NCBI GenBank assembly: GCA_963704915.1
Contig: CAVPIC010000007.1
Location: 123,819 to 187,818 of the forward strand
Length of the DNA stretch: 64,000 nucleotides
DNA from: Ilumatobacteraceae bacterium
Lineage (GTDB): Bacteria; Actinomycetota; Acidimicrobiia; Acidimicrobiales; Ilumatobacteraceae
Reading direction: 5' to 3'
Both the position numbers and the translations under genes were made by a program. A model generated the notes under the pieces. That model worked only from the letters and a program-made list of their open reading frames with translations. It did not search any database and was not told where the DNA came from. This document shows, one piece after another, positions 9,854 to 44,603 of the stretch (position 1 is the first letter of the stretch; the number at the start of each line of letters is the position of its first letter).

Positions 9854-9895
9854 GCGATGAGCGAAGCGCCCGAAGAGCGCCACTTGGCTCATCGC
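9854..9895. repeat. 42-bp palindromic element (single copy)
   Basis: Sequence: GCGATGAGCGAAGCGCCCGAAGAGCGCCACTTGGCTCATCGC. It lies between two convergent gene ends. Confidence 0.85.
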
Positions 9896-9925
9896 GCGCG
9901 GTGGTTGGGCCGGAGCGATCGCTCG

Positions 9926-10513
9926 TCAGGATTCGAGCGCGGCGCGGAGTTGTTCGTACGCGTGGTCGGGCATGGAGGTGTAGAGCAGTTCGGCGCCGGC
10001 GAATCGACGTGCCTCGGCCGCGAGGGCGGGCACGTAGACGTGCTCGGCCAGGATGACGACCGTTGACGTTCCCGGCTCGACCGCCTCGCGGAACCACGCC
10101 ACCCACTCGTCGGGGATGCCGAGGTCGACGATCTTGGCGGTGACCGCTCCCGACGCGGCACCGATACCGAGGCCCGCGATCCAGCCAACGGGACCGCCGA
10201 GCACCAGACCGAGAAGGCTCGTCCACATGGCGCCACTGAGCGCTGCGCGCCCGGGCGTGGGGTCGATCGTCTCGACGACCTTCACCGCACCGTCGGGGCT
10301 CTTCGTGACCACCACGGCGTCCTGGAGGTCGAGCGCCCCGGACTCCTTCAACCCGCCCATCGCCAGCAGATACTGCTGGGCGAGGACCTGGCGACCGAAC
10401 GACACGCCGATGATCACCGGCGCACCGGGATCCGAGACCACCCGTTCGTGCGGCTCGATCCCCGCCCGCAGCGCCGGGTCGGGCGGATCGAAGGCCGGAG
10501 TCTGGTCGTTCAT
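9926..10513 (-). CDS. DUF1269-family membrane protein
   Basis: 195 aa with a glycine-zipper segment (LGLVLGGPVGWIAGLGIGAASGAV) flanked by soluble domains, as in DUF1269 proteins. Confidence 0.7.
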   Translation of the reverse strand: MNDQTPAFDPPDPALRAGIEPHERVVSDPGAPVIIGVSFGRQVLAQQYLLAMGGLKESGALDLQDAVVVTKSPDGAVKVVETIDPTPGRAALSGAMWTSLLGLVLGGPVGWIAGLGIGAASGAVTAKIVDLGIPDEWVAWFREAVEPGTSTVVILAEHVYVPALAAEARRFAGAELLYTSMPDHAYEQLRAALES

Positions 10514-10765
10514 GCCCGCAGTCTGCCCGATTCGTGGCCGGAGTCCCTGCCGGTGAGGCCGGTCACGTGCTGGTGACCGTGACCTCGGTCGTGCGCGACG
10601 CCTCGATGAGCGCGTCGAGTTCGCCGGCCATCGGTGCGAGAACGTCGCGCGCGTTGTACGAGCCGGAACCGCCGGCGAGCAGAGCAGGGAGGAGTCGGCG
10701 CATCGGCGGTGAGCGCAGATGCCCGGTACCCTCTCGATCCCAACCGATCAGAAGGAAATCGACTC

Positions 10766-11089
10766 ATGGCCCAGGCCAAACTCACGCCCCTCCAGCAAGC
10801 CGAAGCCGACCGCAAGGCGGCCGAGGACGCCCGCTCGAACAAGGTGCAGAAGACCTACTCCGACGAGGAGAAGGCGACCCGCAAGGAGCGTGTCGCCAAG
10901 GCCAAGGACGCCATGACCCGCTCGGTCGGTCTGAAGGGCGCCCACGTGGCGCCGGCGCGTGCCGCGATCAAGAAGTACCTGCAGAACCTGAACGATCCGA
11001 AGCAGCCCGACGATCAGCAGTTCGAAACACTGATCGAGGCGCCGTTCAAGGCGCCGCCGAAGAAGAAGACCAACGACCGCCGCTTCTGA
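10766..11089 (+). CDS. Small Lys/Ala-rich basic hypothetical protein
   Basis: 107 aa starting at ATG 10766, which is preceded by GAAGGAAA. It has coding-like GC3. I recognised no family. Confidence 0.5.
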   Translation: MAQAKLTPLQQAEADRKAAEDARSNKVQKTYSDEEKATRKERVAKAKDAMTRSVGLKGAHVAPARAAIKKYLQNLNDPKQPDDQQFETLIEAPFKAPPKKKTNDRRF

Positions 11090-11108
11090 GCGCGATCCGC
11101 GCCGCGCT

Positions 11109-11211
11109 GCGATGAGCGAAGCGACCGGATAGCGGCTTTTCGCTCATCGCGGGGCCGGTGCGGCTGGTTGTGATGAGCGAAGCGACCGGATAGCGGCTTT
11201 TCGCTCATCGC
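11109..11211. repeat. Array of two 42-bp palindromic elements (11109-11150, 11170-11211) with a 61-bp period
   Basis: The core is identical in both copies (GAAGCGACCGGATAGCGGCTTTTC). A 19-bp linker separates them. The array lies between convergent genes. Confidence 0.9.
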
Positions 11212-11235
11212 AGAGCGAGTGGGGACAATGGTCGG

Positions 11236-11703
11236 TTACGTCGTGGTGGGTGGCAGGACGGCGTCGACGAGGGCCTGCTCCAGCCGGGACAGCTCGGCCG
11301 TGATGCGCGCTCGGGCTCGGCGCCGGTCGTTCAACGGCATCGTCGCCGAAATGGCCGTGGCTCGCCGGAGCTCGTCGACCGCCCGGAGGATCACCGCCCC
11401 GTCGGCATCGTTCGGATCGGGAAACACCAGCCGAGCGTTGCGCTCCAATGCCGTCACGCGCCGCTCGAGTCCTCGGTGACCGAACCGACGGGTGGGATCG
11501 AGCCGCTCGAGCGACGAGGGTTCCAGCTGGTTGCCGCCATCGTCGGCTCGCCGGTTGGCTGCCCACTCCCGCGCGGCGACCGGCGCCTTGCGGAGCTGCT
11601 CGCGTACTCGTTCGTCCTGCAGCACCGACACCGCGAGCAGGAGTGCGCCCTGCGCTGCCTTGCGTCGGGATGTCGGGATCGGGATGGGTCGCTTGCCGGG
11701 CAT
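11236..11703 (-). CDS. Hypothetical membrane-anchored protein
   Basis: 155 aa from ATG 11703, with one hydrophobic helix (GALLLAVSVL) followed by an Arg/Glu-rich helical region. The ORF-track extension to 12105 is antisense to the MDR gene. Confidence 0.45.
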   Translation of the reverse strand: MPGKRPIPIPTSRRKAAQGALLLAVSVLQDERVREQLRKAPVAAREWAANRRADDGGNQLEPSSLERLDPTRRFGHRGLERRVTALERNARLVFPDPNDADGAVILRAVDELRRATAISATMPLNDRRRARARITAELSRLEQALVDAVLPPTTT

Positions 11704-11788
11704 CGCAGTTGTCGAGCATAGGAGTTGCCCGGTCGTGGTCGTGATCGCCCGGCTGGCGGTGATTCCACGTCGCGATCGGGTGGGCACG

Positions 11789-12949
11789 ATGTGGTTGAGT
11801 GGTTCCATGCCTTCCGAGTATCCCGCCACCGCCCTCGAGCTGCGATCGACGCTGACCGACGATGGCGTCGTCACGCTCGCCATCCGCAGTACCGACGTCG
11901 CCGATCCAACCGACGACCAGGTCGTCGTGCGCGTCGAGGCAGCGCCGATCAATCCGTCCGACCTCGGCATGATGTTCGCCGGCGGCGATCCCAGCGCCGG
12001 CCTCCCGGCTGGAGACGGCATCCACGACGCCGTGGCCGTCCCGGTGACCGAGGCCGCCGTCGCCGCGCAGCGAGCCCGTCTGGGCAAGCCGATGCCGGTC
12101 GGCAACGAAGGTGGTGGCGTGGTGGTTGCCGCCGGTTCGTCGCCCGCTGCGCAGGCACTGCTCGGCAGCGACCGTCGGCTTCCTGTCGGGCAACGCCTAC
12201 GCCCAGTACCGCACGCTGCACGTCAGCCAGTGCCTGCCGATGGCACGACGGCACCGACCCGGCCGATGCCGCAGCGGCGTTCGTGAATCCGCTCACCGCG
12301 CTCGGCATGGTCGAGACGATGCGATCCGAGGGTCACACGGCGCTGGTCCACACCGTCGGGGCCTCCAACCTCGGGCTCATGCTCAACCGGATCTGCATCG
12401 ACGACGGCGTCGGGCTCGTCAACATCGTCCGCAAGCCCGAACACGTCGAACTCCTGCATTCGCTCGGGGCCGATCACGTCGTCGACTCGAGCGCCGAGAC
12501 GCTTCATCGACGATCTGACCGACGCACTGCGGGCGACCGGCGCAACGATCGCCTTCGATGCGATCGGCGGTGGCGATCTCGCGAGCATCCTGCTGTCGCG
12601 GATGGAGAAGGTGGCCGGCGAGCGGGCGGGTGAGTTCAGCCGGTACGGCTCGGACACCCACAAGCAGGTCTACATCTACGGCGGGCTCGATCGGGGGCCG
12701 ACGACGCTGCGACGCGATTTCGGCATGTCGTGGGGTCTCGGCGGCTGGCTGCTGACGCCGTTCCTGATCAAGATCGGCCAGGAGGCCGCCGACCGGCTGC
12801 GCCAGCGTGTCGCCGACGAGATCACCACCACGTTCGCCAGCACGTACGGCACTCGCCTGTCGTTGGTCGACGCCGTCGATCCCGGCCAGGTCGAGCGATA
12901 CGCCCGCATGGCCACCGGCGACAAGGCGCTCGTCACCCCGCACGCCTGA
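11789..12949 (+). pseudogene. MDR-family (quinone oxidoreductase-like) dehydrogenase interrupted by three frameshifts
   Basis: The conserved protein is spread over three frames:
- VVVRVEAAPINPSDL...GNEGGGVVVAAGSSPAAQALLGS
- TVGFLSGNAYAQYRTLHVSQCLPMA
- DGTDPADAAAAFVNPLTALGM...HSLGADHVVDSSAET
- FIDDLTDALRATGATIAFDAIGGG...ALVTPHA
The shifts fall at about 12170, 12246 and 12502. Confidence 0.75.
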
Positions 12950-12955
12950 GTCCAA

Positions 12956-12999
12956 CCCTGTCGTTCGGGTCGGGTCCGCACGGACTCTGACGGACAGGG
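12956..12999. terminator. Nested hairpin between convergent genes (possible bidirectional terminator)
   Basis: An outer stem CCCTGTC (12956-62) pairs with GACAGGG (12993-99), and an inner stem GTCCG pairs with CGGAC. There is no U-tract. Confidence 0.3.
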
Positions 13000-13001
13000 T
13001 G

Positions 13002-13778: not shown

Positions 13779-13978
13779 CAGGGCATGCAACCACACCGGC
13801 GTCGTGTCGCCGAAGGTGAACGGTCGATGACGTTGTGGGTCGACCGTGAATTCGACTGAGAGCAACGACGCGAGTGCCCACTCGTGATCCGCGCGGGCTG
13901 CCAATCGTCGAACCGTGCCGTAACCTCGACCGTGCCGACGCCGTCGCCCGACGGGGTGTACCAGATCAGGAGACACAC

Positions 13979-16217: not shown

Positions 16218-16348
16218 CCGCAGCGGCTCCCCAGTGACACCTGGAACGGGCCGATCGGCCCTGTCGGGACGACCCCCGGGCGCGTATCGTCGCCCGTGCG
16301 ATTGCGCCGATCGATGGAGAATCGCCCACCCCGACAGGAGGAACATCC

Positions 16349-17402
<1,054 letters not shown>

Positions 17403-17414
17403 GAGGAGCCGACA

Positions 17415-18563: not shown

Positions 18564-18621
18564 CGTTCACGTCGGGGCCGTCCGGAGGCGCCGCTGATGG
18601 CGAGGCGTAGCCTGCACGTTC

Positions 18622-21679: not shown

Positions 21680-21771
21680 GGATCGACCGTAGTGCCGGGC
21701 TCGCGAGGCGGCGAACTCTTGACGCTGACCGTGACGTGACCGGGCGACCGTGACGCCCGTACCCTTGACGC

Positions 21772-22719: not shown

Positions 22720-22724
22720 TCGTC

Positions 22725-24225: not shown

Positions 24226-24226
24226 C

Positions 24227-26308: not shown

Positions 26309-26411
26309 GCGATGAGCGAACTGTCGGTATTCGGGCGGTTGGCTCATCGCCGGGTCGAGGAGCTGGCTTGCGATGAGCGAACTGTCGGTATTCGGGCGGT
26401 TGGCTCATCGC
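26309..26411. repeat. Array of two identical 42-bp palindromic elements (26309-26350, 26370-26411) with a 61-bp period
   Basis: Each copy reads GCGATGAGCGAACTGTCGGTATTCGGGCGGTTGGCTCATCGC. The core is inverted relative to the copies at 42583 and 44562. Confidence 0.9.
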
Positions 26412-26970
26412 TGGGGTTGGCTCGGGGCGATCGGGGCGATCGGGGCCGACGACGATGGGTCAGGCGGTACACCGTGGCCCAGGCGACCGCGATGATCGAG
26501 GCGACCGCGGTGCCCTGGTACAGCCAGTGGGTGGTGTCGGTGCCGGCGAAGGCCGCATGCAGACTGACGAGCAGGAAGACGGCGTAGCTCGAGAGATGGA
26601 TCCACCGCCAGACCCGGCGGGGGAGTCGCTTCATGGCGAGCGAGGTCACTTCGACGGCGAGGAGCAACCACAGGGCAATGACACCGAGCGCGACCGCGCC
26701 CGGTTGCCATGACGACGCGTAGGGAACGAGCAGGTCGGCGAGGCCGAAGTGGACGTAGTCGTCGGCGACGAGCGCACCGAGGTGGATCGCCGTGAACGCG
26801 ACCGCGAGTCCGCCGAGCCAGCGGTGCAGGTCGAGCAGCCAGGCAGGTCGCCGATGCTCGGGGAAGGCCTTCGTCGACAACACGATCCCCCAGATCACCG
26901 AGGCGGTCAGCATCAACCAGGCGACGATGCCGGACGCTCGTGTGAGATACCACCACACCTGTGGGTTCAT
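26344..26970 (-). CDS. Ferric-reductase-like (MsrQ-like) transmembrane haem-binding protein
   Basis: 208 aa with six predicted helices and paired His residues (HRWLGG...TAIHLGA; IHLSSY...SLHAAF). The last 22 or so codons run through the palindromic repeat. Confidence 0.75.
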   Translation of the reverse strand: MNPQVWWYLTRASGIVAWLMLTASVIWGIVLSTKAFPEHRRPAWLLDLHRWLGGLAVAFTAIHLGALVADDYVHFGLADLLVPYASSWQPGAVALGVIALWLLLAVEVTSLAMKRLPRRVWRWIHLSSYAVFLLVSLHAAFAGTDTTHWLYQGTAVASIIAVAWATVYRLTHRRRPRSPRSPRANPSDEPTARIPTVRSSQASSSTRR

Positions 26971-27944: not shown

Positions 27945-28425
27945 GGGTCGTCGCCACCGGAGCAGGGGCCGGCGCCGCTGCCGGCGCCTGAGTCTGAACC
28001 TGAGTCTGCGTCGGAGCCGGCGCGACCACACGGACCTCGGGACGAGCCGTGAGGGTCACCGGAGCGAGGTCGGTTGCCACTGGCGGCGTGGTCGCCTCGG
28101 CGGTCGGCGGCAGCGTGGCCGTGGGGGAGGGGGCGGTGGGGGTGGTCGGCGAGGCGGCGGCGGTCGGCGGCGGGGTGGTCGCAGGTGGGGTACTCGCGGC
28201 CGGCGTGGACACCGCATCGTCGGCGACGGCGCTGGCGATGCCCATCGAGGCGACCAGGCCGAACATGGTGGCGACGCCGAGACCGCCGCTGGCGATCCTC
28301 GATCCGCTCGCTGCATGACGTCGCCGAGGGCGCCGTGCTGGGCTGGGGATGGAGCGGGGCGACACCGCGCTCGCTGCGGGTGGAGGCAATGGCTGGCGAC
28401 CGAGGAGGGGATCGACGTCAGTCAT
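27931..28425 (-). CDS. Membrane-anchored Pro/Thr/Ala-rich protein
   Basis: 164 aa from ATG 28425 with one TM helix (GLGVATMFGLVASMGIASAV). A low-complexity PT/PA-rich extracytoplasmic tail follows. Confidence 0.55.
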   Translation of the reverse strand: MTDVDPLLGRQPLPPPAASAVSPRSIPSPARRPRRRHAASGSRIASGGLGVATMFGLVASMGIASAVADDAVSTPAASTPPATTPPPTAAASPTTPTAPSPTATLPPTAEATTPPVATDLAPVTLTARPEVRVVAPAPTQTQVQTQAPAAAPAPAPVATTRGSG

Positions 28426-29155
28426 CGTCGTCGGCGCCTTCGTACTCGTGATCGTCGTCCTCGTCCTCGTCGTGGTCGTCGTCGTCGTCGTGATCGTCGT
28501 CCTCGTACTCGTCATCGTCATCGTCGTCGTACTCGTCGTCGTCGTGATCGTCGTCGTAGCCGCCATTGGTCGGTGAGGCGCCGACCGGGCTCTGCGTCGC
28601 TCCTGCGGCCGGTGCCTGGGCGAAGATGGTGCTCGGTTCGGTCACGTCGACGACGACAGCGCCATCTTCGCCGAGTGACGCACTGAACACGATTGTTCGG
28701 TCGCCGTTGCTGAACTCGACACGCAGTGAGCGAAGGTCGCCCTGCGAGAGCAGCGGGCTCCAGCCCGGAACTGCCTCCACGTGGTCGAGTGCGAGGCCGC
28801 TCGTGGTCGTCATGATCCACACGGAGCCCGCCTCCTCGATGTCGTACTGCTGGGCGACGTCGGTCGGAAGTGTCGTCTCGACAACGGTGGAGGCCGGCGC
28901 CGTCGTCTCGACCGTCGCGACGGTCGTCGGGATCCCGGCTGGCGCCGCCGCCGGCAGCAGCTCGTCCGTGGCCGCGAGATCACCGAGCGTGCTGTCGTCG
29001 GCGGCATTGAGGATGCCGATGTTCGCAGCAACGGCCGCGGTGCCGGCGAGCAGCACGCCGGCGACCGCTGCCGCCGTGAGGATGGTCGTGCGAGTCGTCG
29101 CGGTTCGCCCCGGCGTGCGGGGGCCTGACGGGGGTGTGGGAGGCGTCGAAGTCAT
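28418..29155 (-). CDS. Membrane-anchored extracytoplasmic protein with a 47-residue Asp/Glu/His/Tyr tail
   Basis: 245 aa from ATG 29155 with a TM helix (ILTAAAVAGVLLAGTAAVAA) and a small beta-rich domain. The C-terminus is GGYDDDHDDDEYDDDDDDEYEDDDHDDDDDHDEDEDDDHEYEGADDDD. Confidence 0.7.
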   Translation of the reverse strand: MTSTPPTPPSGPRTPGRTATTRTTILTAAAVAGVLLAGTAAVAANIGILNAADDSTLGDLAATDELLPAAAPAGIPTTVATVETTAPASTVVETTLPTDVAQQYDIEEAGSVWIMTTTSGLALDHVEAVPGWSPLLSQGDLRSLRVEFSNGDRTIVFSASLGEDGAVVVDVTEPSTIFAQAPAAGATQSPVGASPTNGGYDDDHDDDEYDDDDDDEYEDDDHDDDDDHDEDEDDDHEYEGADDDD

Positions 29156-29189
29156 GGGATCGACCGTACGCCTGGGTGTTCCAGCAGGG

Positions 29190-29216
29190 GGCAAGGCCAA
29201 GGCAAACGTTGGGTAA
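29190..29216. promoter_or_regulatory. Three direct repeats GG(C/T)AA at 11-bp phasing (candidate OmpR-family response-regulator boxes)
   Basis: GGCAA occurs at 29190 and 29201, and GGTAA at 29212. They lie in the 84-bp divergent region between the acidic-tail/ApbE operon and the response-regulator gene. Confidence 0.35.
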
Positions 29217-29239
29217 GCGATCCCCGTGCAGGTCGCCGA

Positions 29240-29948
29240 GTGCGCGAACCTGACGATGTGCGCCTGCTGCTCGTCGAGGACGATCCCACGATCTCCGATC
29301 CGCTGTTGGAAGGGCTGCGCCGCGAAGGGTTCGAGGTCGAGCTGGCATCGACGGGTGCGGCCGCGCTCGCTGCGAAGCCCGTCGACCTGGTGCTGCTCGA
29401 TCTCGGCCTGCCCGATCTGGAAGGGCGCGTCGTGTGCCAGGAGATTCGAGCCTCGAGCAACGTGCCGATCATCGTCGTCACTGCCCGCAGCGACGAGATC
29501 GATCGAGTGGTCCTGCTGGAGCTCGGCGCCGACGACTACGTCGTCAAGCCGTTCGGGTTCCGTGAGCTGGTCGCACGGATCCGGGCGGTGCTGCGCAGGA
29601 CCGGCCAGCCGGACGGCGCCATCGGCGATCTCGAGCCCGTTGAGGTCGGGGCCCTGGTCGTCGATCGCCGTCGGCACGAGGTGACGTTCGGTGGCGCGCC
29701 GGTGGCACTCACGCCGAAGGAGTACGATCTGCTCGTCTGTCTCGCAGTCGACGCCGGAGCGGTGAAGACGCGGGAGCAACTGATGCGTGAAGTCTGGGAC
29801 GAGCACTGGTGGGGTTCGACCAAGACGCTCGACGTCCACGTCGCATCGCTGCGTCGCAAGCTGGACGCCCGAGGTGATCGAGACCGTCCGATCGGTCGGC
29901 TACCGATTTGCTGCGCACGACGAGCGCGCCTCGGCCGGCGCGGAGTGA
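29240..29948 (+). pseudogene. OmpR/PhoB-family response regulator with a frameshift near the 3' end
   Basis: The receiver domain (LLLVEDDP...DLVLLDLGLPD...) and winged helix (LTPKEYDLL...TLDVHVASLRRKLDA) are followed by EVIETVRSVGYRFAA in the +1 frame. The shift is at about 29870 and the stop at 29946-29948. Confidence 0.8.
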
Positions 29949-31624: not shown

Positions 31625-31633
31625 CGTCGTGTC

Positions 31634-32259: not shown

Positions 32260-32260
32260 C

Positions 32261-36309: not shown

Positions 36310-37202
36310 TGGCAGTCGTCGCAGGGCCCGATCTCGAGTGGCGCGAGCTGAGCCGGCGTGCCGCGCTCCAGTCCCATCGCCTGATCGGCTGGATCTACTG
36401 GGATCCACGAGCGATCGCCAACTATGCGGCACTCGGCGTCCCCGACGGGATCGGCTATTACATCGCCACTCGTGGCGCAACGCTGGGAGACGCCGGCAAC
36501 GACGTGGTGACGGCGGCGTTCTACTCCATTCATCCCGGCTTCGTCGCGTTCGGACTCGATCAGTGCCGCACGCACACGACGTTCGAGTCCGCCGCCGCGG
36601 CCCGTGATGCGGCCGTGACCGATGGCTTGCGCGAGTACGTGCCGGAGATCTGTGACGAGCTCGCGTCGATGGCGCCGCAACTCTGGGCCGCAGCCGACGC
36701 GCTCCCGCTGGCGGGACGAGCGTTGTTCGCGTCGACCCGTGCGTGGCCGCGTCCGGACGACGCGCTGGTGTCTGCGTGGCTCGCGGTCAACTGCATCCGC
36801 GAGTGGCGTGGCGACACGCACTGGGCGATCCAGATCGCCGAGGACATCACCGGCACTGCGGCCGGCATCCTCGACGGCGCCTGGCGGAACTACGACGGTG
36901 ACTGGCTGGCCCGCAGCCGCGGCGCCGACGACGCCGCGCTCGCGATCGGGTTCGCCGAGCTGGAGGCTCGTGGGCTCGCGTCCGACGGGGCGGTCAACGC
37001 GGCCGGCATCGAGTACCGGCAGGGGTTGGAGGATCGCCTCGACGATCTCTGCGCCGCGGCGTGGCGCCACCTCGGCGAGGACGCAACGGTCCGGTTCGTC
37101 GAACTCGTCGAACCGGTCGGCGGGCGGCTCGTCGAACGCATCGACGTCACCGCCGGCCCCAACTGGATGCCCGCAGCACGCGACCGGAAGGCCCCCTCGT
37201 GA
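36309..37202 (+). CDS. Conserved actinobacterial hypothetical protein (SCO6745-family-like)
   Basis: 297 aa containing LIGWIYWDPRAIANYAALGVPDGIGYYIATRGATLGDAG...VVTAAFYSIHPGFV. It has a TGATG junction with the dehalogenase gene. The family assignment is from memory only. Confidence 0.6.
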   Translation: MAVVAGPDLEWRELSRRAALQSHRLIGWIYWDPRAIANYAALGVPDGIGYYIATRGATLGDAGNDVVTAAFYSIHPGFVAFGLDQCRTHTTFESAAAARDAAVTDGLREYVPEICDELASMAPQLWAAADALPLAGRALFASTRAWPRPDDALVSAWLAVNCIREWRGDTHWAIQIAEDITGTAAGILDGAWRNYDGDWLARSRGADDAALAIGFAELEARGLASDGAVNAAGIEYRQGLEDRLDDLCAAAWRHLGEDATVRFVELVEPVGGRLVERIDVTAGPNWMPAARDRKAPS

Positions 37203-37684
37203 TCACCACCGAACGAACCCGGACGATCCCGGCCCGACAGTCACGGGTGTGGGATGTCCTCGCCGACTTCGACCGTCTCGCCGTCTGGGCCGACAACGCC
37301 GACCACACCTGCTGGCTCGACGAGCCCGCCGACGACGGCCGCATGATCGGCCGGGCACGCCGGGTGCAGGCCGGCAGGGTGGTGCTCGTCGAGCGGATCA
37401 CTGTCTGGGAGCCGCCGGCCCGCCTCGCCTACGACCTCGGCGGACTGCCGCCGGTGGTCAAGTCCGCAGTGAACGAGTGGCGTCTCGTCGCCGACCCGTC
37501 GGACGGCAACCGGACGATCGTCACGCTGGCCACCCACGTCGACTGCGGTCCTCGACCGCCACAGCAACTCATCGCCCGCCTCGTCGGCAAGCGCCTGGCC
37601 AAAGCGTCCGACGTGATGCTGGTAGGCCTGGCCGACCATCTCGCTGTGACGCACCTCTCCGATTTGAAGGGAACACCGACATGA
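37199..37684 (+). CDS. SRPBCC (START/polyketide-cyclase-like) family protein
   Basis: 161 aa with the typical start (ERTRTIPARQSRVWDVLADFDRLAVW). It has GTGA and ATGA overlaps with its neighbours. Confidence 0.75.
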   Translation: MITTERTRTIPARQSRVWDVLADFDRLAVWADNADHTCWLDEPADDGRMIGRARRVQAGRVVLVERITVWEPPARLAYDLGGLPPVVKSAVNEWRLVADPSDGNRTIVTLATHVDCGPRPPQQLIARLVGKRLAKASDVMLVGLADHLAVTHLSDLKGTPT

Positions 37685-40272
37685 GCCAGACACGACCCGA
37701 CGTGATCGTGATCATGACCGACCAGGAGCGGGCAGCTCCGCCGTACGAATCCGACGAGCTGCGGGCATGGCGCCACGACACCCTCACCGGGCGCACGTGG
37801 TTCGCGGAACATGCGGTGTCGTTCGGTCGCCACTACACCGGCTCGCTGGCGTGCGTGCCGAGTCGACCGACGCTGTTCACCGGGCAGTACCCAGACCTGC
37901 ACGGGGTGACGCAGACTGATGGCCTCGGCAAGCTGCACGACGACTCACGGCTGCGCTGGCTTCCCGAAGGCGAGGTGCCGACGCTCGGCAACTGGTTCCG
38001 AGCTGCCGGCTACGACACGCACTATGACGGCAAGTGGCACATCAGCCATGCCGACCTGGTCGATGCGGCGACCGGTGAGATCGTTGCCACCAATGACGAC
38101 GACGGCAACGTCGATGCTGCCGCGGTGCAGCGCTATCTCGCCGCCGACCCACTCGGGCCGTACGGGTTCTCCGGCTGGGTCGGCCCGGAGCCCCACGGTG
38201 CTGGACTTGCCAACGCCGGGGTGCGCCGTGACCCGCTGATCGCGGCTCGTGTGGTCGCCTGGTTGGAAGACCGCTACGCCCGCCGAGCAGCGGGCGACGC
38301 CGACGCACAGCGACCATTCCTGCTGGTGGCGAGCTTCGTCAATCCCCACGACATCGTGCTGTTCCCCGCGTGGATCCGCCAGGGCATGCCGATCGAGCCG
38401 GGCTCGCTCGACCCGCCCACGGTTGCGCCCTCGCCGACCGACGACGAGGACCTGTCGACCAAGCCCGCCGCACAGATCGCCTACCGCGAGTCGTATCCCA
38501 CCGGGTACGGACCGGTGGCGCTGGTCGGCAAGTCCTATCGCGACCACGCCCAGGAGTACCGCGACCTCTACTACCGGCTGCACGCAGATGTCGACGGTCC
38601 GCTCGACCAGGTGCGCCGGGCGATCACCGCCGGCCACGAGAGCGGTGCCTTCGACGAAGCGGTGATCGTCCGCACGGTCGACCACGGAGAGCTGCTCGGC
38701 GCCCACGGCGGGCTCCACCAGAAGTGGTTCAACCTCTACGACGAGGCAACCCGTGTGCCCTTCGAGGTGGTTCGACTCGGTTCGAGCCCGACCGAGCCGC
38801 GGGTGATCGACGACGCACCGACGTCCCACGTCGACCTCGTTCCGACGCTGCTCGGCGCGGCTGGCATCGACGAAGCCGAGGTGGCCCAGAGGTTGCGCGC
38901 CGAGTTCAGTGAGGTCCATCCGTTGCCCGGTCGCAATCTGATGCCGGTCGTCGATGGGGTGCTGACACCGGACCGAAATCGTGCGGTGTATGTCCTGACC
39001 AGGGACAACATGCTCGAAGGAGACACAGGGGCCTCGGGGTTCGCCCGCCGGATCGGACGGACGGTGAAGCCGCCCGCGCCGTTGCGGATCAAGGTGCCGG
39101 CCCACGTGGGAGCGAACTTCGAAGGGGTCGTCGTCAGGGTCGAGGACACCGACGCACCCGGCGGTGCCGGGCACTTGTGGAAGCTGGTGCGCACGTTCGA
39201 CGACCCGGCGACCTGGACCGAACCCGGGGTTCGCCACCTTGCCGCGAACGGGTTGCGCGGCGACGAGTACCGCACCGAACCGCTCGCTGACCAGTGGGAG
39301 CTCTACGACCTGACCGCCGATCCGGTCGAGCACGTCAATTGCTGGCGCGATAATGACACACGCTCCGTGTTCGAGCACATGCAGACCGTCTTGAAGCACG
39401 AGCGGGCGCATTCGGTGCCCGAACGCAACGTGCCGTGGCCCTATGTGCGCCGGCGGGCGAGCGCTCCGGCGACCAAGCGGGTGCCGCCACCGGCGCGGCT
39501 GTTGCGCAAGGGGCTGCAGAAGCTCGGGTTGCATCCTGACGACCCTGACGCGCGTGAGTTCGAACTCCTCGGCAAGCGGGCGCTGATCGTGTGCACCAAC
39601 CACGCGGTGCTCGACGTCGGCAAGGCGACAGGTGTGTTCGCCAGCGAGATGACGGTGCCGTACTACGCGTTCCTCGACGCCGGCATGTTCGTCGATCTCG
39701 CCAGCCCGAACGGGGGAGTGATCCCCGTCGACCCGCAGAGCGTCAAACCCGTGATCCGCAGCGCCGATGACGATCGGTTCCTCGCCGACCCCGAACTCCG
39801 AGGGAAGGTCGCGGACTCGCTGGCGGTCGCCGATGTCGACATCGCGTCGTACGACATCGTCTTCCTCGCCGGCGGCTGGGGTGCGGCGTTCGACCTCGGC
39901 ACGTCGGACGCACTCGGCGAGACGATGACCGAGGCGAACGCGCTCGGCAAGGTGATCGGCGGGGTCTGCCACGGGCCGCTCGGGCTGTTGCGAGCGACCG
40001 CACCCGACGGTCGCCCGCTGGTCGAGGGACGCCGGGTCTCAGCGGTGACCGACAAGCAGGTGCGCGAGCTCGGCATCGAGGCGACACCGCAGCACCCCGA
40101 GACCGAGCTGCGTGCCGCTGGGGCCGTGTTCGAGAGCGTGCACGCTCGCCGAGACCCGCTCGCCAACCACTGGGTCGTCGACGGCAACCTCGTCACCGGC
40201 CAGAACCAGAATGCCGGGCCGATGGTGGCGCGGGAGATGATGCAGATCCTCACCCAACGAGATGGACAGTGA
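37681..40272 (+). CDS. Formylglycine-type sulfatase fused to a C-terminal DJ-1/PfpI (class I glutamine-amidotransferase-like) domain
   Basis: 863 aa. The N-terminus has VIVIMTDQER, the signature CVPSRPTLFTGQ and KWHISH. The C-terminal 230 or so aa (ALIVCTNHAVL...IVFLAGGWGAAFDL...VIGGVCHGPLGLL...VTGQNQNAG) match DJ-1/PfpI/Hsp31-like proteins, including a nucleophile-elbow Cys-His. No stop codon separates the two parts. Confidence 0.85.
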   Translation: MSQTRPDVIVIMTDQERAAPPYESDELRAWRHDTLTGRTWFAEHAVSFGRHYTGSLACVPSRPTLFTGQYPDLHGVTQTDGLGKLHDDSRLRWLPEGEVPTLGNWFRAAGYDTHYDGKWHISHADLVDAATGEIVATNDDDGNVDAAAVQRYLAADPLGPYGFSGWVGPEPHGAGLANAGVRRDPLIAARVVAWLEDRYARRAAGDADAQRPFLLVASFVNPHDIVLFPAWIRQGMPIEPGSLDPPTVAPSPTDDEDLSTKPAAQIAYRESYPTGYGPVALVGKSYRDHAQEYRDLYYRLHADVDGPLDQVRRAITAGHESGAFDEAVIVRTVDHGELLGAHGGLHQKWFNLYDEATRVPFEVVRLGSSPTEPRVIDDAPTSHVDLVPTLLGAAGIDEAEVAQRLRAEFSEVHPLPGRNLMPVVDGVLTPDRNRAVYVLTRDNMLEGDTGASGFARRIGRTVKPPAPLRIKVPAHVGANFEGVVVRVEDTDAPGGAGHLWKLVRTFDDPATWTEPGVRHLAANGLRGDEYRTEPLADQWELYDLTADPVEHVNCWRDNDTRSVFEHMQTVLKHERAHSVPERNVPWPYVRRRASAPATKRVPPPARLLRKGLQKLGLHPDDPDAREFELLGKRALIVCTNHAVLDVGKATGVFASEMTVPYYAFLDAGMFVDLASPNGGVIPVDPQSVKPVIRSADDDRFLADPELRGKVADSLAVADVDIASYDIVFLAGGWGAAFDLGTSDALGETMTEANALGKVIGGVCHGPLGLLRATAPDGRPLVEGRRVSAVTDKQVRELGIEATPQHPETELRAAGAVFESVHARRDPLANHWVVDGNLVTGQNQNAGPMVAREMMQILTQRDGQ

Positions 40273-41119
40273 CATGACCGACACGCGCACACCCCGCTAC
40301 GGAACCGTCGATCGTGAGTACGGGATGAGACTGGCGACCATGCCACCCGACGAGGACGGTCCGGTGTGGATGGTCAACCTCATGAAGTACCGCGAGGTTG
40401 CGGACTACGCCGACGGTCGCGAGTCGGCGATCAGCGGACGCGACGCCGACGATCTCTACACGCCGCGGGAGTCGCTCGCGGCGATCGGCGCCGAGATCGT
40501 GTTCGCCGGCGAGGTCGACCAGCAGTTGCTCGGCGACGCGCCGATCTGGGACCGCGTCGGGGTGGTGAAGTATCCGACGCGTCGCTCGTTCATCGAGATG
40601 CAGTCGCGTCCCGACTTCCAGCGCCAGCACGTCCACAAGGACGCCGGGATGGCCGAGACGATCGTCATCGGGTGCCAGCCGATCGACGTTCCGACGGCAC
40701 CCGACGGCACCGAGCCCGTCGACTGGGCCGACGTGCCGCACCCGCCGACCGACGGCGACGGCCCGGTGATGGTGATCCACGTCCTCAAGTACCACGAGGC
40801 CGCTACGGCATCGATCACGCCTGAGGACATGGCGGCATACCAGCGCGCCGCTGCCGAGGTCGCCGTTCCCCATGGTGTGCGGATCTCCGGGTGGTTCGCC
40901 GCCGAGGGCACGATCCTCGGTGACGGACGCACATGGGACCAGGTCCGGTTCAACCTGTTCCCGAGCAAGGCGGCGTTCATGGCGGTCGTGGTGGACCCGG
41001 CGCGCCTGGAAGCCCAGAAGTCCAGCCGTGAACCGGCGATCGCCGACACATACACGATGATCGTGCGGCCCTCGATCGACCACATCGCCGACAGCATTGC
41101 GGGCATCGACCTGCGATGA
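40262..41119 (+). CDS. Tandem DUF1330-domain protein
   Basis: It has two DUF1330-like halves (VWMVNLMKYREVADY...; VMVIHVLKYHEAATASI...). The start is ATG 40262 (11-nt overlap) or ATG 40274 (1 nt after the upstream stop). The stop codon 41117-41119 lies inside a palindromic repeat. Confidence 0.75.
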   Translation: MDSDMTDTRTPRYGTVDREYGMRLATMPPDEDGPVWMVNLMKYREVADYADGRESAISGRDADDLYTPRESLAAIGAEIVFAGEVDQQLLGDAPIWDRVGVVKYPTRRSFIEMQSRPDFQRQHVHKDAGMAETIVIGCQPIDVPTAPDGTEPVDWADVPHPPTDGDGPVMVIHVLKYHEAATASITPEDMAAYQRAAAEVAVPHGVRISGWFAAEGTILGDGRTWDQVRFNLFPSKAAFMAVVVDPARLEAQKSSREPAIADTYTMIVRPSIDHIADSIAGIDLR

Positions 41120-41215
41120 GCCAAGTGTCGCCATTCAGGCGGTTCGCTCATCGCTGGGGTGGGAACGTTGTCTGCGATGAGCGAAGTGTCGGTATCCGGG
41201 CGGTTGGCTCATCGC
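41113..41215. repeat. Array of two 42-bp palindromic elements (41113-41154, 41174-41215) with a 61-bp period
   Basis: The copies read GCGATGAGCCAAGTGTCGCCATTCAGGCGGTTCGCTCATCGC and GCGATGAGCGAAGTGTCGGTATCCGGGCGGTTGGCTCATCGC. Confidence 0.9.
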
Positions 41216-41234
41216 TGGGGAGGGAGCGCCCTCG

Positions 41235-41771
41235 GTGAGTGGGCCTCGGTACTTTGCATTCATGCGGGCGATCAACACCGGTACGCGGAGGTTGACGAAC
41301 GAGCGGCTGCTGGAGCCCTTCGTCGAACTGGGCTTCACCGACGTCGCCGCCTACCAGGCGGCCGGCAACGTCACGTTTCGCAGCGATCATGCGGTCGACG
41401 AGCACCGCATCGAACGCGAGCTGGCAGCGGCGTACGGCTTCGACACGCCGGCGTTCGTCCGATCGGCGGCCGACGTGAGAGCGATCGCCGACGTCGAACC
41501 GTTCTCGCCGACGGAGATCGCTGCGACGGCCAGAAAGGTGCAGGTGACGTTCCTGCGGAGCCCACCGTCACGCGATCAGATCGCTGCCCTCGTCGATCTC
41601 GCCCCCGACGACGACCTCGTGCGGGTGATCGGATGCGAGTGGTACTGGCTGCCGGTCGAGGGCATCAGCGGGTCCAAGCTCGATGTCGGGCAGGTCGAGT
41701 CGCTGCTGGGCGAAATGACCATGCGTACCCTCGGAACCGTGGCACGTATGTCGAGCAAGTTCGCCGGCTGA
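41235..41771 (+). CDS. DUF1697-family protein
   Basis: 178 aa with a GTG start. It contains YFAFMRAINTGTRRLTNERLLEPFVELGFTDVAAYQAAGNVTF, characteristic of DUF1697. Confidence 0.8.
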   Translation: MSGPRYFAFMRAINTGTRRLTNERLLEPFVELGFTDVAAYQAAGNVTFRSDHAVDEHRIERELAAAYGFDTPAFVRSAADVRAIADVEPFSPTEIAATARKVQVTFLRSPPSRDQIAALVDLAPDDDLVRVIGCEWYWLPVEGISGSKLDVGQVESLLGEMTMRTLGTVARMSSKFAG

Positions 41772-41803
41772 GCTCCCCGGCTGAGCTCCCCGGCTGAGCT
41801 CCA
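41766..41803 (+). repeat. 13-bp tandem repeat (GGCTGAGCTCCCC) with 2.9 copies
   Basis: Sequence: GGCTGAGCTCCCC GGCTGAGCTCCCC GGCTGAGCTCCA. The first unit contains the DUF1697 stop codon. Confidence 0.8.
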
Positions 41804-41812
41804 CCAGCACCA

Positions 41813-41864
41813 CGTTTGTGATGCAATCCGGGTGGGGCGGTCCACCGAAACCGTCACGCAAACG
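41813..41864 (-). repeat. 52-bp element with inverted termini (copy C, reverse orientation)
   Basis: The reverse complement reads CGTTTGCGTGACGGTTTCGGTGGACCGCCCCACCCGGATTGCATCACAAACG. It is exactly 52 bp, like copies A and B. Confidence 0.7.
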
Positions 41865-41918
41865 TGGGTCGAGGAAACCGATTGTCGGTCACTGCTGGGA
41901 ACGAGGCAAGATCCGCCG

Positions 41919-42563
41919 ATGCCACCTGTTCATTCGCTCGCCGCCTTCGCAGCGGTGTCGTTCGCGATCATCATCATTCCGGGACCGAGCGTGATGTTCG
42001 TGGTCGGCAGGGCGTTGTCGCTCGGCCGGCGCGCCGCACTCGTCACGGTGGCCGGTAACGCGCTCGGTTTCTACGTCCAGGTGATGCTCGTGGCGGTCGG
42101 CCTCGGAGCGATCGTCGAGCGATCGGCAGCCGTGTTCACCACCATCAAGCTGATCGGTGCGCTCTACCTCGTCTGGGTCGGGGCGCAGGCGATCATTCAC
42201 CGTCGGGCCAACGCTCAGCGTGCGGTCCTCGTCGAGGGCGCTGACGTGGTGGGCCATCGGTCGCTGTTCCTGGACGGCTTCGTGGTGGGCGTGGCGAATC
42301 CCAAGACGATCGTGTTCTTCGCCGCGATCCTGCCCCAGTTCGTGGCCGCCGGCGGCGCTCCGGCTGGGGTGCAGATGCTGGCGCTCGGGGTGATCTTCGC
42401 AGTGATTGCGTTGGCATCCGACAGCGCGTGGGGCCTCGCCGCAGGGACCGCACGACAGTGGTTCGCAGGCTCGCCCAGGCGACTCGAACTCGTCGGCGCC
42501 GCAGGAGGCGCGGCGATCGTGGGTCTCGGGGTTCGATTGGCGCTCACACGCCGCTCCGACTGA
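41919..42563 (+). CDS. LysE/RhtB-family amino-acid exporter
   Basis: 214 aa with AAVSFAIIIIPGPSVMFVVGRAL and FVVGVANPKTIVFFAAILPQF. Confidence 0.85.
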   Translation: MPPVHSLAAFAAVSFAIIIIPGPSVMFVVGRALSLGRRAALVTVAGNALGFYVQVMLVAVGLGAIVERSAAVFTTIKLIGALYLVWVGAQAIIHRRANAQRAVLVEGADVVGHRSLFLDGFVVGVANPKTIVFFAAILPQFVAAGGAPAGVQMLALGVIFAVIALASDSAWGLAAGTARQWFAGSPRRLELVGAAGGAAIVGLGVRLALTRRSD

Positions 42564-42582
42564 TGGCGCCTGCCGGCGGCCT

Positions 42583-42745
42583 GCCATGAGCCAACCGCCC
42601 GAATCCCGGCTTTTCGCTCATCGCTGGGCGCGTACACCGTGTCCGATGAGCGAAGCGCCCGGATGGCGTCACTTGGCTCATCGCAGGCGGTTGGACTCGG
42701 TCAGCGATGAGCGAACCGCCCGAATCCCGGCTTTTCGCTCATCGC
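42583..42745. repeat. Array of three 42-bp palindromic elements (42583-42624, 42643-42684, 42704-42745)
   Basis: The periods are 60 and 61 bp. The core subtypes alternate a-b-a. Confidence 0.9.
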
Positions 42746-42767
42746 TGGGGATGGGCGGCGGTGTTGG

Positions 42768-44474
42768 TCAGGTGAGGTCGAACCAGGACAGCGTCTCGGC
42801 GACGGCGATCGGATCGGACGCGTTGGCCTGTGCGCTCGGGTCGTCGAGCACTTCCGAGATACTGCGGCGTCCGTTGAGCACTTCGCCCCACGATCTCCGA
42901 TCGATCTGCAGGACGACGTCGGCGTCGACACCGTCGGTCGGCGCGGCGACGCCGTTGCGGACGTGGAGACCGGCTGCACCGTCTGGGAGCTCGATGCACA
43001 GGTGCCGTTCGGCGCCCTCACAGCGTTGCGGGTCGAGCATCACCCGCAGGATGTGGACCACGTCGCTGGGGTCGGCGTCGGCGACCTGGGCGCCGGGAAA
43101 CCGGTGGCGGCGGAATCTCGTCGTGTCGATGGCTCCCTCGAGCTCCAGCGCTCGCGTGAGACTCCAGTTGCGGATGTTGGCTGACGTGGTGCGCTGGCCG
43201 ACCGCACGCAGCGCTGCAGCGAGGCGGCCGCGGTCTTCACGGCAGTCGGGATCGACCCGTACGAGCCAGGTTGCCAACTCGAGCGCCCACCGCAGATCGT
43301 CGTCGGCAAGTGCGGCGTCGATCTGCGTGCGCACCTGGTCGACGCCACCGAATCCGTCGATGAGCTTACGCGCACGCTCGATCGGCGGCACCGGGAACAG
43401 CCGCGCCGTGTCGCCGTCGAACCATCCGCGCAGCCCGGTGTGGATCTGTCGGACGTGGTGTTCGGCCAGTCCGTAGAACTGGGTCTGGAAGTACGAGTCA
43501 CCGCACGAGTCCGGCAACTGGACGAACTCCGTCAGCTCGCCATGGGTGAGGCCCTTGTTGACGCCGCGCACGGTCTGGTCCCACATGAACTGGATGGCGT
43601 CGCGGCTGCGTGTCAGCTCGGTGCGGATGCGATCCGTTCCGCTGATCGGTGGTCCGTGCGTGCCAACCAGATGCTCGGCGTCGAGGCCGATCATGTGGTC
43701 GAATCCGGCGAGCAGGATACGTGGGTCGCGGTACTCCTCGCCGCGGATCGCGAACACGTTGAACAGCGCCGGCCACGCCAGGTTGTTGACGCACACCCCG
43801 AGGTCGGGGAACCAGATCGTGATCGAGTCGGTGGCATCGGACTCGGCCGGGGTCAGCTCGACCCTCAGTCCGGCGAGGGTGATCGTCACGGGTTCGCCGA
43901 ATGTGTCGGTCGGCTCGAGGAAGCCCTCGGTGAACGGCGCGTGCTCGGGGATCCGGAACGCGGGCCCGAGGCCGCCGCTGACGAGTGCGTCGGGCCCCGC
44001 CGGCGGCAGCAGCATGCCGAACTGGTGCACGAGCCCATACTGTGAGACCGGTCCGACCTCGCCCGCCTGGCGGCGACGGTTGGCGATCACACCCGCGTGT
44101 GCCCAGATGGGAATCGACGATGACGCGCCAGACTCGATCAGGGCCTCCGTGCCGCCGACGTAGTGGAAGTGGCTGTAGATCACACCGACCACCGGTGCAG
44201 CAGTGTGGGTACGCACCTGCTCCAGCGACCACCGCATCTCCTCGATCGAGTCGCCGGTGTCGATGACGATCAACCCATCGGGCCCCTCGACGAACGTCTG
44301 GTTGGACAGACCATTGCCGACGGCGCACCACACGCCCGGGGCGACCTCGTGCAGCCGTCGCTCGAACCGTTGCGCGTGCTCGATCGCCTCGCGCCGAGCA
44401 AGCGCACCGTTCGGAGCCGTCGAAACGCGCGACTCGTCGCGGTCGAAGCTGGCGGGAATCGTTGGCGCGGTCAT
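42768..44474 (-). CDS. MBL-fold alkyl/aryl sulfatase (SdsA1/Bds1-type, with a C-terminal SCP2-like domain)
   Basis: 568 aa containing LIVIDTGDSIEE, VIYSHFHYVGG, a dimerisation region (FYGLAEHHVRQIHTGLRGWFDGD) and a C-terminal SCP2-like segment. The gene is intact. Confidence 0.85.
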   Translation of the reverse strand: MTAPTIPASFDRDESRVSTAPNGALARREAIEHAQRFERRLHEVAPGVWCAVGNGLSNQTFVEGPDGLIVIDTGDSIEEMRWSLEQVRTHTAAPVVGVIYSHFHYVGGTEALIESGASSSIPIWAHAGVIANRRRQAGEVGPVSQYGLVHQFGMLLPPAGPDALVSGGLGPAFRIPEHAPFTEGFLEPTDTFGEPVTITLAGLRVELTPAESDATDSITIWFPDLGVCVNNLAWPALFNVFAIRGEEYRDPRILLAGFDHMIGLDAEHLVGTHGPPISGTDRIRTELTRSRDAIQFMWDQTVRGVNKGLTHGELTEFVQLPDSCGDSYFQTQFYGLAEHHVRQIHTGLRGWFDGDTARLFPVPPIERARKLIDGFGGVDQVRTQIDAALADDDLRWALELATWLVRVDPDCREDRGRLAAALRAVGQRTTSANIRNWSLTRALELEGAIDTTRFRRHRFPGAQVADADPSDVVHILRVMLDPQRCEGAERHLCIELPDGAAGLHVRNGVAAPTDGVDADVVLQIDRRSWGEVLNGRRSISEVLDDPSAQANASDPIAVAETLSWFDLT

Positions 44475-44500
44475 CGCCCGAGCATGTCAGACCGACCGCT

Positions 44501-44603
44501 GCGATGAGCGAAGCGCCCAGATGGCGCCACTTGGCTCATCGCAGCGGGTGGAACCGGGGCATCGATGAGCGAACCGCCCGGATACCGGCTTTTCGCTCAT
44601 CGC
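44501..44603. repeat. Array of two 42-bp palindromic elements (44501-44542, 44562-44603) with a 61-bp period
   Basis: Core subtype b is followed by subtype a. The array lies between two co-directional minus-strand genes. Confidence 0.9.

Follow-up and report, generated by a model that had tools for sequence, protein, structure and literature searches.

REP-like hairpin repeats with an invariant foot and quantised spacing in the actinobacterial family Ilumatobacteraceae

Repeats of the repetitive extragenic palindrome (REP) type have been worked out almost entirely in Proteobacteria, and their spread is explained by a GTAG tag and the REP-associated tyrosine transposase (RAYT). The REP superfamilies described so far are reported to be defined by a tag, either GT[AG]G or CGTC (PMC3733652, PMC6006769). 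The CGTC-tagged REPs of Alphaproteobacteria are palindromes without a known dedicated transposase (PMC3733652). In the 'double-foot' REPs, which go with RAYT subclass 2.4 in Cyanobacteria and Bacteroidetes, an inverted motif lies at both hairpin ends and in-frame gene insertions occur (PMC6006769). Here we describe a family of 42-bp palindromes first noticed in a 64-kb stretch of DNA (64,000 nucleotides of contig CAVPIC010000007.1, called the window below) from an Ilumatobacteraceae bacterium of the class Acidimicrobiia, with a G+C content of 66-71%. These palindromes belong to a large hairpin-repeat family, not described before, that has spread between the genes of a single actinobacterial family from soil and sediment. 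They form a REP-like family in a new clade and have several unusual features, namely the absence of a tag, an invariant foot, a strict head-to-tail arrangement and quantised spacing. We give a probability of about 0.75 to the reading that they are small, non-autonomous, untagged 'double-foot' REP-like repeats that are specific to Ilumatobacteraceae.

A sequence-only reading of the window had listed twelve palindromes at six loci, and all of them were recovered at the same coordinates by two methods that agreed. When the 64 kb were searched for the pattern GCGATGAGC-N24-GCTCATCGC, two mismatches being allowed, 12 copies were found, whereas 100 shuffles gave an expectation of 0.01. A covariance model (R1), built from an alignment (A2) of 121 copies from other genomes and run over the window with filters off, returned the same 12 at 53-69 bits. 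Since the next-best match reached only 14.5 bits, the census of the window was complete and held no hidden decayed copies. The arms were perfect in 8 of the 12 copies, and one arm mismatch was present in each of the other four: 11170 (GTG...), 42583 (GCC...), 42643 (CCG...) and 44562 (TCG...). Start-to-start distances within the arrays were 61, 61, 61, 60, 61 and 61 bp, which bore out the period of 61 bp (once 60) that had been read, and Tandem Repeats Finder independently gave a period of 61 at two arrays (41111-41225 and 42586-42746). The proposed division of the cores into two subtypes, 'a' and 'b', described only six of the twelve copies. The remainder (11109/11170, 26309/26370, 41113 and 41174) were other variants, and four of these six were in the opposite orientation. 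A check against known families, which had been suggested at the outset, gave no Rfam match to the elements of the window at gathering thresholds; when E-values up to 10 were allowed over 41000-44800, the best matches were chance hairpins of the miRNA type, at 22 bits against a threshold of 90. A full-text literature search returned nothing relevant on the arm sequences or on repeats of Ilumatobacter or Acidimicrobiia.

The same arms were widespread in one bacterial family. An exact-arm pattern scan of 596 Gb, with one genome per species, found the pattern at no fewer than 115 loci (numbered with the prefix L) in 39 or more assemblies, almost every one of which bore the label Ilumatobacteraceae. 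By our own estimate, 18 fixed bases give about 9 chance matches in 596 Gb, and a few entries with unrelated cores (L018, L099, L019:348 and L115:7825) were such matches. The closest relatives of the window were metagenome-assembled genomes (MAGs) of Ilumatobacteraceae, namely L101 with 86% nucleotide identity over 5.1 kb and L120 with 83.6% over 17.7 kb, and the protein homologs of the window genes also carried the name 'Ilumatobacteraceae bacterium'. A metagenome scan added 120 further loci from sediment and soil with a median G+C content of 67%, and the viral contigs scanned held no copies. Throughout the Ilumatobacteraceae the arms were invariant and the cores were genome-specific.

Each unit was an imperfect palindrome of 42 bp composed of a 12-bp foot, an internal loop or bulge, an upper stem of 3-5 bp and a 4-nt N-A-T-N loop. 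The foot, GCGATGAGC-S-AA at positions 1-12 paired with TT-S-GCTCATCGC at positions 31-42, was near-invariant in 199 copies, and in the position matrix of these copies the same was true of C17, A21, T22 and G25-G26. The internal loop or bulges occupied positions 13-16 and 27-30. Since the core was not a perfect palindrome, the element had an orientation, and the oriented copies gave the consensus GCGATGAGC GAA A.GCC.G TAT. CGGGCGG TTC GCTCATCGC, in which the 5' half was less conserved than the 3' half. Two forms of the core were commonest, one with AA facing GG in a 2x2 internal loop and one with two bulges of a single base each; further variants were perfect stems of quite different sequence (for example GAAACCCCCG/CGGGGGTTTC, GAGTCCCCC/GGGGGACTC and GAACGCCCCGG/CCGGGCGTTC). 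Outside the 42 bp there was nothing but a symmetric skew in base composition, towards C on the left side and towards G on the right side.

In alignment A2 the proposed register paired 82.6% of cells, compared with 32-47% in slid registers, and changes on both sides were seen in 91 cells, compared with 62 in shuffles (0 of 500 shuffles reached the observed value). The hairpins predicted for the window also held up, since nine of ten tested copies folded as single-stranded DNA at -12.5 to -16.7 kcal/mol (z -3.6 to -5.4), copy 42583 with its arm mismatch folded weakly, and RNA folds of the arrays were stable as well. These features bear on a rival explanation in which the elements are primarily duplex sites for a dimeric DNA-binding protein (chromosome-structuring, gyrase-like or nucleoid-associated), with mobility secondary and with arrays in which adjacent sites look out from one side of the helix. 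Namely, compensatory core changes that keep the pairing point to a folded single strand rather than to a duplex, and the conserved asymmetric internal loop would be meaningless in duplex DNA. Two other ideas about the hairpin were discarded. Insertion into older hairpins would leave flanks that are mutually complementary, which they were not beyond their base composition, and a hammerhead-like reading of the CGATGAG...GAA motif lacked a stem II on inspection and any Rfam support.

Among the matches listed, the genome loci contained 132 arrays: 70 single copies, 54 doublets, 6 triplets and 2 arrays of five units. Neighbours within an array were same-oriented, head-to-tail, and no array mixed orientations. 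In other genomes, 68 neighbouring pairs differed on average at 2.6 of 42 positions, and 15 pairs were identical. The copies were spaced at 61 bp in 63 cases among the listed genome loci, and the metagenome loci, an independent set, gave this value in 32 of 46 cases. Another discrete class stood at 71-72 bp, with almost nothing between the classes, and the linkers were 18-19 nt or 29-30 nt long. Locally, the units multiplied head-to-tail, giving arrays whose period was 61 bp or, less often, 71-72 bp. When the 26309 doublet of the window was compared with its counterpart in L121, the 61-bp period was kept and the arms were unchanged, while 7 of the 19 bases in the linker and about 9 of the 24 in the core had been replaced.

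Several observations favoured the binding of a protein to duplex DNA. The two spacing classes, which appeared in each of two independent data sets, are one helical turn apart, and this step suggests that a duplex-bound protein constrains them; the spacing was also retained while 7 of 19 linker bases changed. Moreover, the 12-bp half-sites were dyad-symmetric, were invariant in at least 39 assemblies and were kept in a coding region despite codon bias, and the orientation of the elements was unrelated to the direction of transcription (19 versus 17, see below). However, no candidate protein was found, and the copies clustered at gene 3' ends instead of being spread as expected for chromosome organisation. 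Together with the folding evidence above, this led us to regard duplex sites as an unlikely primary role. Such a role would nevertheless be compatible with a mobile hairpin repeat, by analogy with the REPs and BIMEs (bacterial interspersed mosaic elements) of E. coli, which are both mobile and bound by gyrase and the integration host factor (IHF) (PMC6006769); the two accounts are not exclusive.

The linkers were of more than one kind. Some arrays were plain local duplications, whose linker consisted of the first bases of the right flank joined to the last bases of the left, in a register that varied by locus; in L111, a perfect case, the right flank contributed 6 nt and the left flank 13-14 nt. 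In other arrays the copies were identical and the linker was unrelated to either flank. About half of the linkers fitted a loose G-rich consensus, TGGGG-N10-GGTT. Several models of the array were examined and rejected. A long hairpin over the whole doublet, as in REPINs (REP doublets forming hairpins), was hinted at by RNAfold for two window arrays, and was contradicted by 53 non-identical doublets: in 7 of them the two copies paired better with each other than internally, in 43 equally well and in 3 less well, and the (C,C)+(G,G) combination required for the long hairpin occurred just twice. A 61-bp mobile unit with a conserved tail was only partly true: the flanks of copies with similar cores were on average unrelated (6.6/19 identical), but the G-rich consensus was present in about half of the linkers and a few loci had both copy and tail in common. 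Shrinkage of longer arrays as the source of linker-like flanks was not supported because no decayed copies adjoined such arrays. As a separate observation, two arrays sharing a 19-nt linker (18/19) flanked an MFS transporter gene 2.2 kb apart (L019:5554-5656 and L019:7777-7940), which means either that a copy-plus-linker unit was duplicated over distance or that the gene was bracketed by direct repeats.

The cores evolved in concert within genomes. Among the matches listed, the mean core distance was 5.1/24 within an assembly and 9.0/24 between assemblies, a difference that 0 of 500 label permutations reached, and core pairs with at most 3 differences made up 29% of pairs within assemblies versus 1.9% between them. 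The window itself provided an example. A block of 'b' copy, linker and 'a' copy was present on both sides of the alkyl-sulfatase gene, in which copies 42643 and 44501 were identical at 40/42 positions and copies 42704 and 44562 at 39/42. The 19-nt stretches on the right side of copies 42643 and 44501 agreed at 12/19, so the relatedness of linkers after 'b' copies had been noticed correctly. Since the 42-mers were about 95% identical and the linkers 63%, something homogenised or replaced the 42-mers and left the linkers untouched.

Comparison with relatives showed that units are gained and lost at given sites. A class I S-adenosylmethionine (SAM) methyltransferase carried the element in frame as 14 codons (S-DER-x7-xRS-S) in L024, L048, L057, L068, L072 and L109, for example at L048:5684-5725. 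The insert formed a 14-residue loop between motif II and strand beta-3, and methyltransferase orthologs of about 80% identity lacked exactly those 14 residues. Among the best database homologs, a majority (251 aa) had the insert and a minority (236-241 aa) did not. Filled and empty genes differed by exactly 42 nt with no visible target duplication, so the unit can insert as exactly 42 bp without a detectable duplication of its target. In these copies the arms were kept letter for letter through the codons GAT, CGA and TCA, which are rare at high G+C, and the cores of the six orthologous copies differed widely.

The intergenic sites varied in a similar manner. Site 41113 was empty in L124 and L126, where the flanking genes overlapped by GTGA, and the window had 130 extra nucleotides (8 nt, copy, 19 nt, copy and 19 nt). 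By this comparison, the 41113 doublet is a lineage-specific gain. At site 42583 there were 3 copies in the window, 2 in L124 and none in L125 or L126; at site 44501 there were 2 in the window, 1 in L124, none in L125 and 1 decayed copy in L126. On the other hand, the 26309 doublet was conserved in L120-L123 (83.6% nucleotide identity to the window), and L015 was occupied both at 9854, by a decayed orthologous copy, and at 11109, by a single copy with 61 bp fewer than the doublet of the window. Sites 26309, 9854 and 11109 are therefore old. Because relatives carried 0, 1, 2 or 3 copies at the same sites and because the 14-codon insertion was exact, the element is mobile, now or formerly. The region 40262-46602 also differed in gene content: compared with L124, L125 and L126, a LysE gene, one or two SDR genes and a DUF1697 gene were present or absent, and a 409-aa gene was inserted in L126. 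The arrays thus sat in a variable, sulfatase-rich neighbourhood.

With respect to genes, the copies were placed in a consistent way. In the window, four loci lay between convergent gene ends (9854, 11109, 26309 and 42583) and two between co-directional genes (41113 and 44501), and the nearest stop or start codons were 19-40 nt from the elements. The claim that every copy sat at a gene end or between genes was right as to gene ends and needed one correction, in that two genes terminated inside an element. Among the matches listed, a stop codon was located -7 to +40 nt from the array on 94 of 116 sides facing a gene 3' end, and in ten of those 94 the TGA of the arm itself was the stop. The contexts of 90 classified arrays were convergent in 33, tandem in 42 and divergent in 15, compared with a background of about 25/54/21% for neighbouring gene pairs. 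A proposed comparison of intergenic and genic frequency showed strong exclusion from coding DNA: only 8 of 123 arrays were in an open coding-like frame, which amounted to two independent events, and 115 were not, so genic sites numbered about 2 of about 117 independent sites. The refuting outcomes named at the outset, equal frequency inside genes and a match to a catalogued family, thus did not occur. Thus, the units were tolerated almost only outside genes, mostly 0-40 nt past stop codons, and the preference for gene 3' ends was real but not absolute. A second possible genic site, besides the methyltransferase, was that of L017:3140-3181 (a single copy) and L089:6906-7008 (a doublet), in a coding-like frame upstream of a UvrD-like helicase domain. 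The 103-nt doublet of L089 would shift the frame, and this site may instead be space before the true start codon. It was also observed that, since 61 mod 3 = 1, three successive copies put the TGA of the arm in all three frames on both strands.

This placement raised the possibility that the elements are selected RNA elements, either bidirectional terminators or stabilisers of mRNA 3' ends, whose similarity reflects function and not mobility. Copies located 0-40 nt past stop codons, the enrichment of convergent pairs (33 of 90 arrays versus about 25% in the background), very stable RNA hairpins (z -3.6 to -8.2) and a palindrome that folds on both strands would all fit such a role. However, no T tract followed the hairpins, a terminator scan picked up none of the copies, 15 of 90 arrays lay between divergent genes, and Rfam had no match. 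In tandem contexts, 19 arrays were co-directional with transcription and 17 opposite. We therefore rejected a strand-specific role in RNA, because orientation was not tied to transcription; a strand-specific RNA function was unlikely, and a symmetric hairpin would serve either strand. An identical 9-12-bp foot in hundreds of unrelated 3' untranslated regions, together with an in-frame genic copy, shows descent by copying and not convergence. Selected RNA elements are therefore a doubtful explanation of the family as a whole, and a secondary role of the mobile repeat as an RNA element is plausible.

Regularly spaced palindromes with dissimilar 19-nt sequences between them might also recall degenerate CRISPR arrays or integron attC-like recombination arrays, and the position at gene 3' ends, the conserved outer boxes, the variable middle and the unpaired bases resemble attC sites. 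Nevertheless, this explanation was effectively refuted. There were only 1-5 units per array at hundreds of scattered loci, and Pfam searches of about 35 open reading frames (ORFs) flanking or between copies, in the window and in other loci, gave no cas or integrase match. Linkers of 18-19 or 29-30 nt were rich in G and were related either to one another or to the adjoining flanks; those of 19 nt are too short for CRISPR spacers, which measure at least 26 nt, share the G-rich consensus and in some cases were built from local flanks. The consensus had no R''/R' boxes (RYYYAAC...GTTRRRY), and the neighbours were conserved, syntenic chromosomal housekeeping genes instead of cassettes. The element did not behave as a MITE either, a miniature element with inverted repeats that derives from a DDE transposon. 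Its arms could pass as terminal inverted repeats of 9-12 bp, but filled and empty sites differed by 42 nt with no duplication, the flanks of copies with similar cores were unrelated (6.6/19), and no parent insertion sequence was seen.

Two further families of small repeats share single features with the element. Rickettsia palindromic elements (RPEs) are 100-150 bp long, often genic and in frame, and add a peptide segment. As generally described, they are similar to the methyltransferase case in being palindromic repeats in frame within a gene, and they differ from our element in that the latter was mostly extragenic. Mycobacterial interspersed repetitive units (MIRUs) are head-to-tail repeats between the genes of Actinobacteria, with a period fixed at some tens of bp and a copy number that varies between strains; they are non-palindromic, have no conserved foot, occur within operons and contain small overlapping ORFs. 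By description, MIRUs are alike in their head-to-tail, fixed-period arrays in Actinobacteria, whereas the element here was palindromic with a conserved foot.

The closest known kind was REP, as had been suggested, although the BIME-like alternating mosaic was peculiar to two arrays, both in the window: a/b alternation occurred in no others. Like the REPs and BIMEs of Enterobacteria and Pseudomonas, the element was a small imperfect palindrome with many dispersed copies per genome (PMC3733652, PMC6006769). It shared with them the 'long hairpin' architecture, in which a bulge or internal loop separates the paired foot from an upper stem. As in those elements, most copies were downstream of genes and between ORFs that converge or run in one direction, sequence variants were specific to the species, tandem clusters included flanking DNA, and in-frame genic copies were occasional. 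Its hairpin was of the canonical type (20-40 bp, with a basal stem of 7-20 nt and a loop of 2-5 nt), although at 42 bp it was 2 bp over the range, and copy number and extragenic placement also agreed, with 6 loci in the 64-kb window. On the other hand, the unpaired GT[AG]G that stands 0-2 nt 5' of the canonical foot was absent from the Ilumatobacteraceae element. The foot here was a perfect 9-12-bp palindrome that was invariant across a bacterial family and did not vary by species; neighbours were always head-to-tail, unlike the inverted or alternating neighbours of REPINs and BIMEs; and the spacing was fixed at 61 or 71-72 bp. The host also differed, as it belonged to the Actinomycetota, and Actinobacteria were not mentioned in PMC3733652. 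Compared with the CGTC-tagged REPs of Di Nocera et al. (2013), the CGTC tag was missing, and sequence, clade and array geometry were different. The same inverted motif at both ends and the in-frame insertion were shared with 'double-foot' REPs, but the latter have GT[AG]G...C[TC]AC and flank a tnpA-REP gene, and neither was seen here.

Several results weighed against a REP-like mobile repeat. We found no conserved unpaired tetranucleotide beside the foot in the matrices of 199 copies and of 164 confidently oriented ones, so the guide-sequence logic of IS200/IS605 and RAYT had no visible counterpart. The search for a RAYT gene near the element, also proposed by the sequence-only reading, was negative: three approximate Y1 probes (IS608 TnpA, E. 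coli RayT and IS200 TnpA) had no match among roughly 12,000 ORFs of the 1.6 Mb that surround some 380 copies. Since RAYT genes are single-copy, such a sample would hold at most about one, and the negative was weak. Roughly 20 ORFs with copies on both sides were ordinary metabolic genes by Pfam, including GcvP, MFS, GNAT, acyl-CoA dehydrogenase, MoeA, IndA, Rrf2, luciferase-like, EamA and GDPD, and the sole HUH-like candidate from a regular-expression search was the cytochrome b subunit of succinate dehydrogenase. No known REP mechanism predicts the 61/71-bp spacing or a fixed duplication length with variable end points. Finally, none of the public sequencing runs held more than 12% of the locus and none was RNA, so that any role in RNA is stated here as inferred.

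If the elements are REP-like mobile repeats, the following course of events can be proposed. Spread and homogenisation would proceed through the hairpin form, in single-stranded DNA at the replication fork, and the foot would be recognised by an enzyme or a repair process with sequence specificity. A candidate would be a remote HUH/Y1-type nuclease resembling RAYT, or a different enzyme whose gene lies elsewhere in the genome. The host may tolerate or even use the copies, because a stable stem-loop just past the stop codon could protect or end transcripts. Moreover, an arm can supply a TGA stop on either strand, as it does for two genes of the window. It is also conceivable, though quite improbable in our judgement, that the element is the substrate of Ilumatobacteraceae-specific machinery unrelated to RAYT, such as a hairpin or palindrome nuclease or recombinase, or a DNA-binding protein. 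Such machinery would need to keep a 9-12-bp foot unchanged over family-level divergence, even in a gene, to overwrite cores genome by genome and to place copies at 61 or 71-72 bp. In that case the arrays would be phased protein-binding platforms and not junk.

The individual loci of the window, each scored by the pattern search and the covariance model, were as follows. The single element with a 'b'-like core, at 9854-9895 on the minus strand (53.5 bits), lay between the convergent genes 9226-9813(+), encoding a cNMP-binding protein, and 9926-10513(-), encoding DUF1269. The second locus was a minus-strand doublet. Its first copy (11109-11150, 65.3 bits) began 19 nt past the stop of ORF 10634-11089(+), the 19-nt G-rich linker GGGGCCGGTGCGGCTGGTT (11151-11169) was unrelated to either flank, and the stop of ORF 11236-12105(-) was 24 nt downstream of the second copy (11170-11211, arm GTGATGAGC, 57.7 bits).

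The plus-strand doublet at 26309-26350 (65.7 bits) and 26370-26411 (68.4 bits) consisted of two identical copies separated by a 19-nt linker (26351-26369). Here the Ferric_reduct (MsrQ-like) gene 26344-26970(-) was translated across copy 26370, which lay entirely within the 3' end of its ORF, and across the linker, and it ended at the TGA in the right arm of copy 26309 (TCA at 26344-26346, read on the minus strand). The linker, which was translated within the C-terminal tail, was 12/19 identical to the orthologous linker of L121, and this arrangement was common to L120-L123. A 9-bp repeat, TCGGGGCGA in 2.8 copies (26422-26446), adjoined the array within the same C-terminal tail.

At the next plus-strand doublet, the left-arm TGA of copy 41113-41154 (59.8 bits), at positions 41117-41119, was the stop codon of gene 40262-41119(+). 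The 19-nt linker TGGGGTGGGAACGTTGTCT (41155-41173) was 13/19 identical to the 19 nt after the second copy (41174-41215, 69.1 bits), which ended 19 nt upstream of the DUF1697 start at 41235. A perfect 13-bp tandem repeat, three times CCGGCTGAGCTCC, was observed nearby at 41764-41802, across the DUF1697 stop (41771) and the short gap before the LysE gene.

The remaining five copies were on the minus strand. The triplet started with copy 42583-42624 (57.6 bits), the one with the GCC arm mismatch and the weak hairpin, 19 nt past the LysE stop at 42563. It was followed by an 18-nt linker (42625-42642), responsible for the sole 60-bp period of the window, a 'b' copy at 42643-42684 (56.6 bits), the 19-nt linker AGGCGGTTGGACTCGGTCA (42685-42703), which was 12/19 identical to the linker at 44543-44561, and an 'a' copy at 42704-42745 (68.6 bits). 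The alkyl-sulfatase stop (42768) was 22 nt downstream of this last copy. On the other side of the alkyl-sulfatase gene, 26 nt from its start (44474, minus strand), was the last doublet, with a 'b' copy at 44501-44542 (58.1 bits), the 19-nt linker AGCGGGTGGAACCGGGGCA (44543-44561) and an 'a' copy at 44562-44603 (62.3 bits). The stop of the SDR gene 44631-45602(-) was 27 nt downstream of the latter.

Two other features of the window were recorded. The sole Rfam match above the gathering threshold was Ms_AS-5 (RF02465, a Mycobacterium antisense sRNA; 57.7 bits) at 37852-37896(-), antisense inside the sulfatase/DJ-1 fusion ORF 36622-40272(+); this match probably reflected conservation of the sulfatase coding sequence and not an sRNA gene. 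A hexamer array, 24 copies of TCGTCG (or 8 of a 15-mer), extended over 28412-28557 inside ORF 28418-29839(-), which had no Pfam match, and would encode an acidic low-complexity stretch.

The family is of interest mainly because its enzyme is missing, its foot does not change and its spacing follows a 61/71-bp rule. It lets one test whether REP-like behaviour requires RAYT, and the precise phasing at 61/71 bp, as a constraint that is clean and can be measured, should lead to a protein partner. For the annotation of soil and sediment Ilumatobacteraceae MAGs, the elements matter because they mark gene ends and in some cases supply stop codons or extend or interrupt ORFs, and their variable copy number at fixed sites could act as a strain marker.

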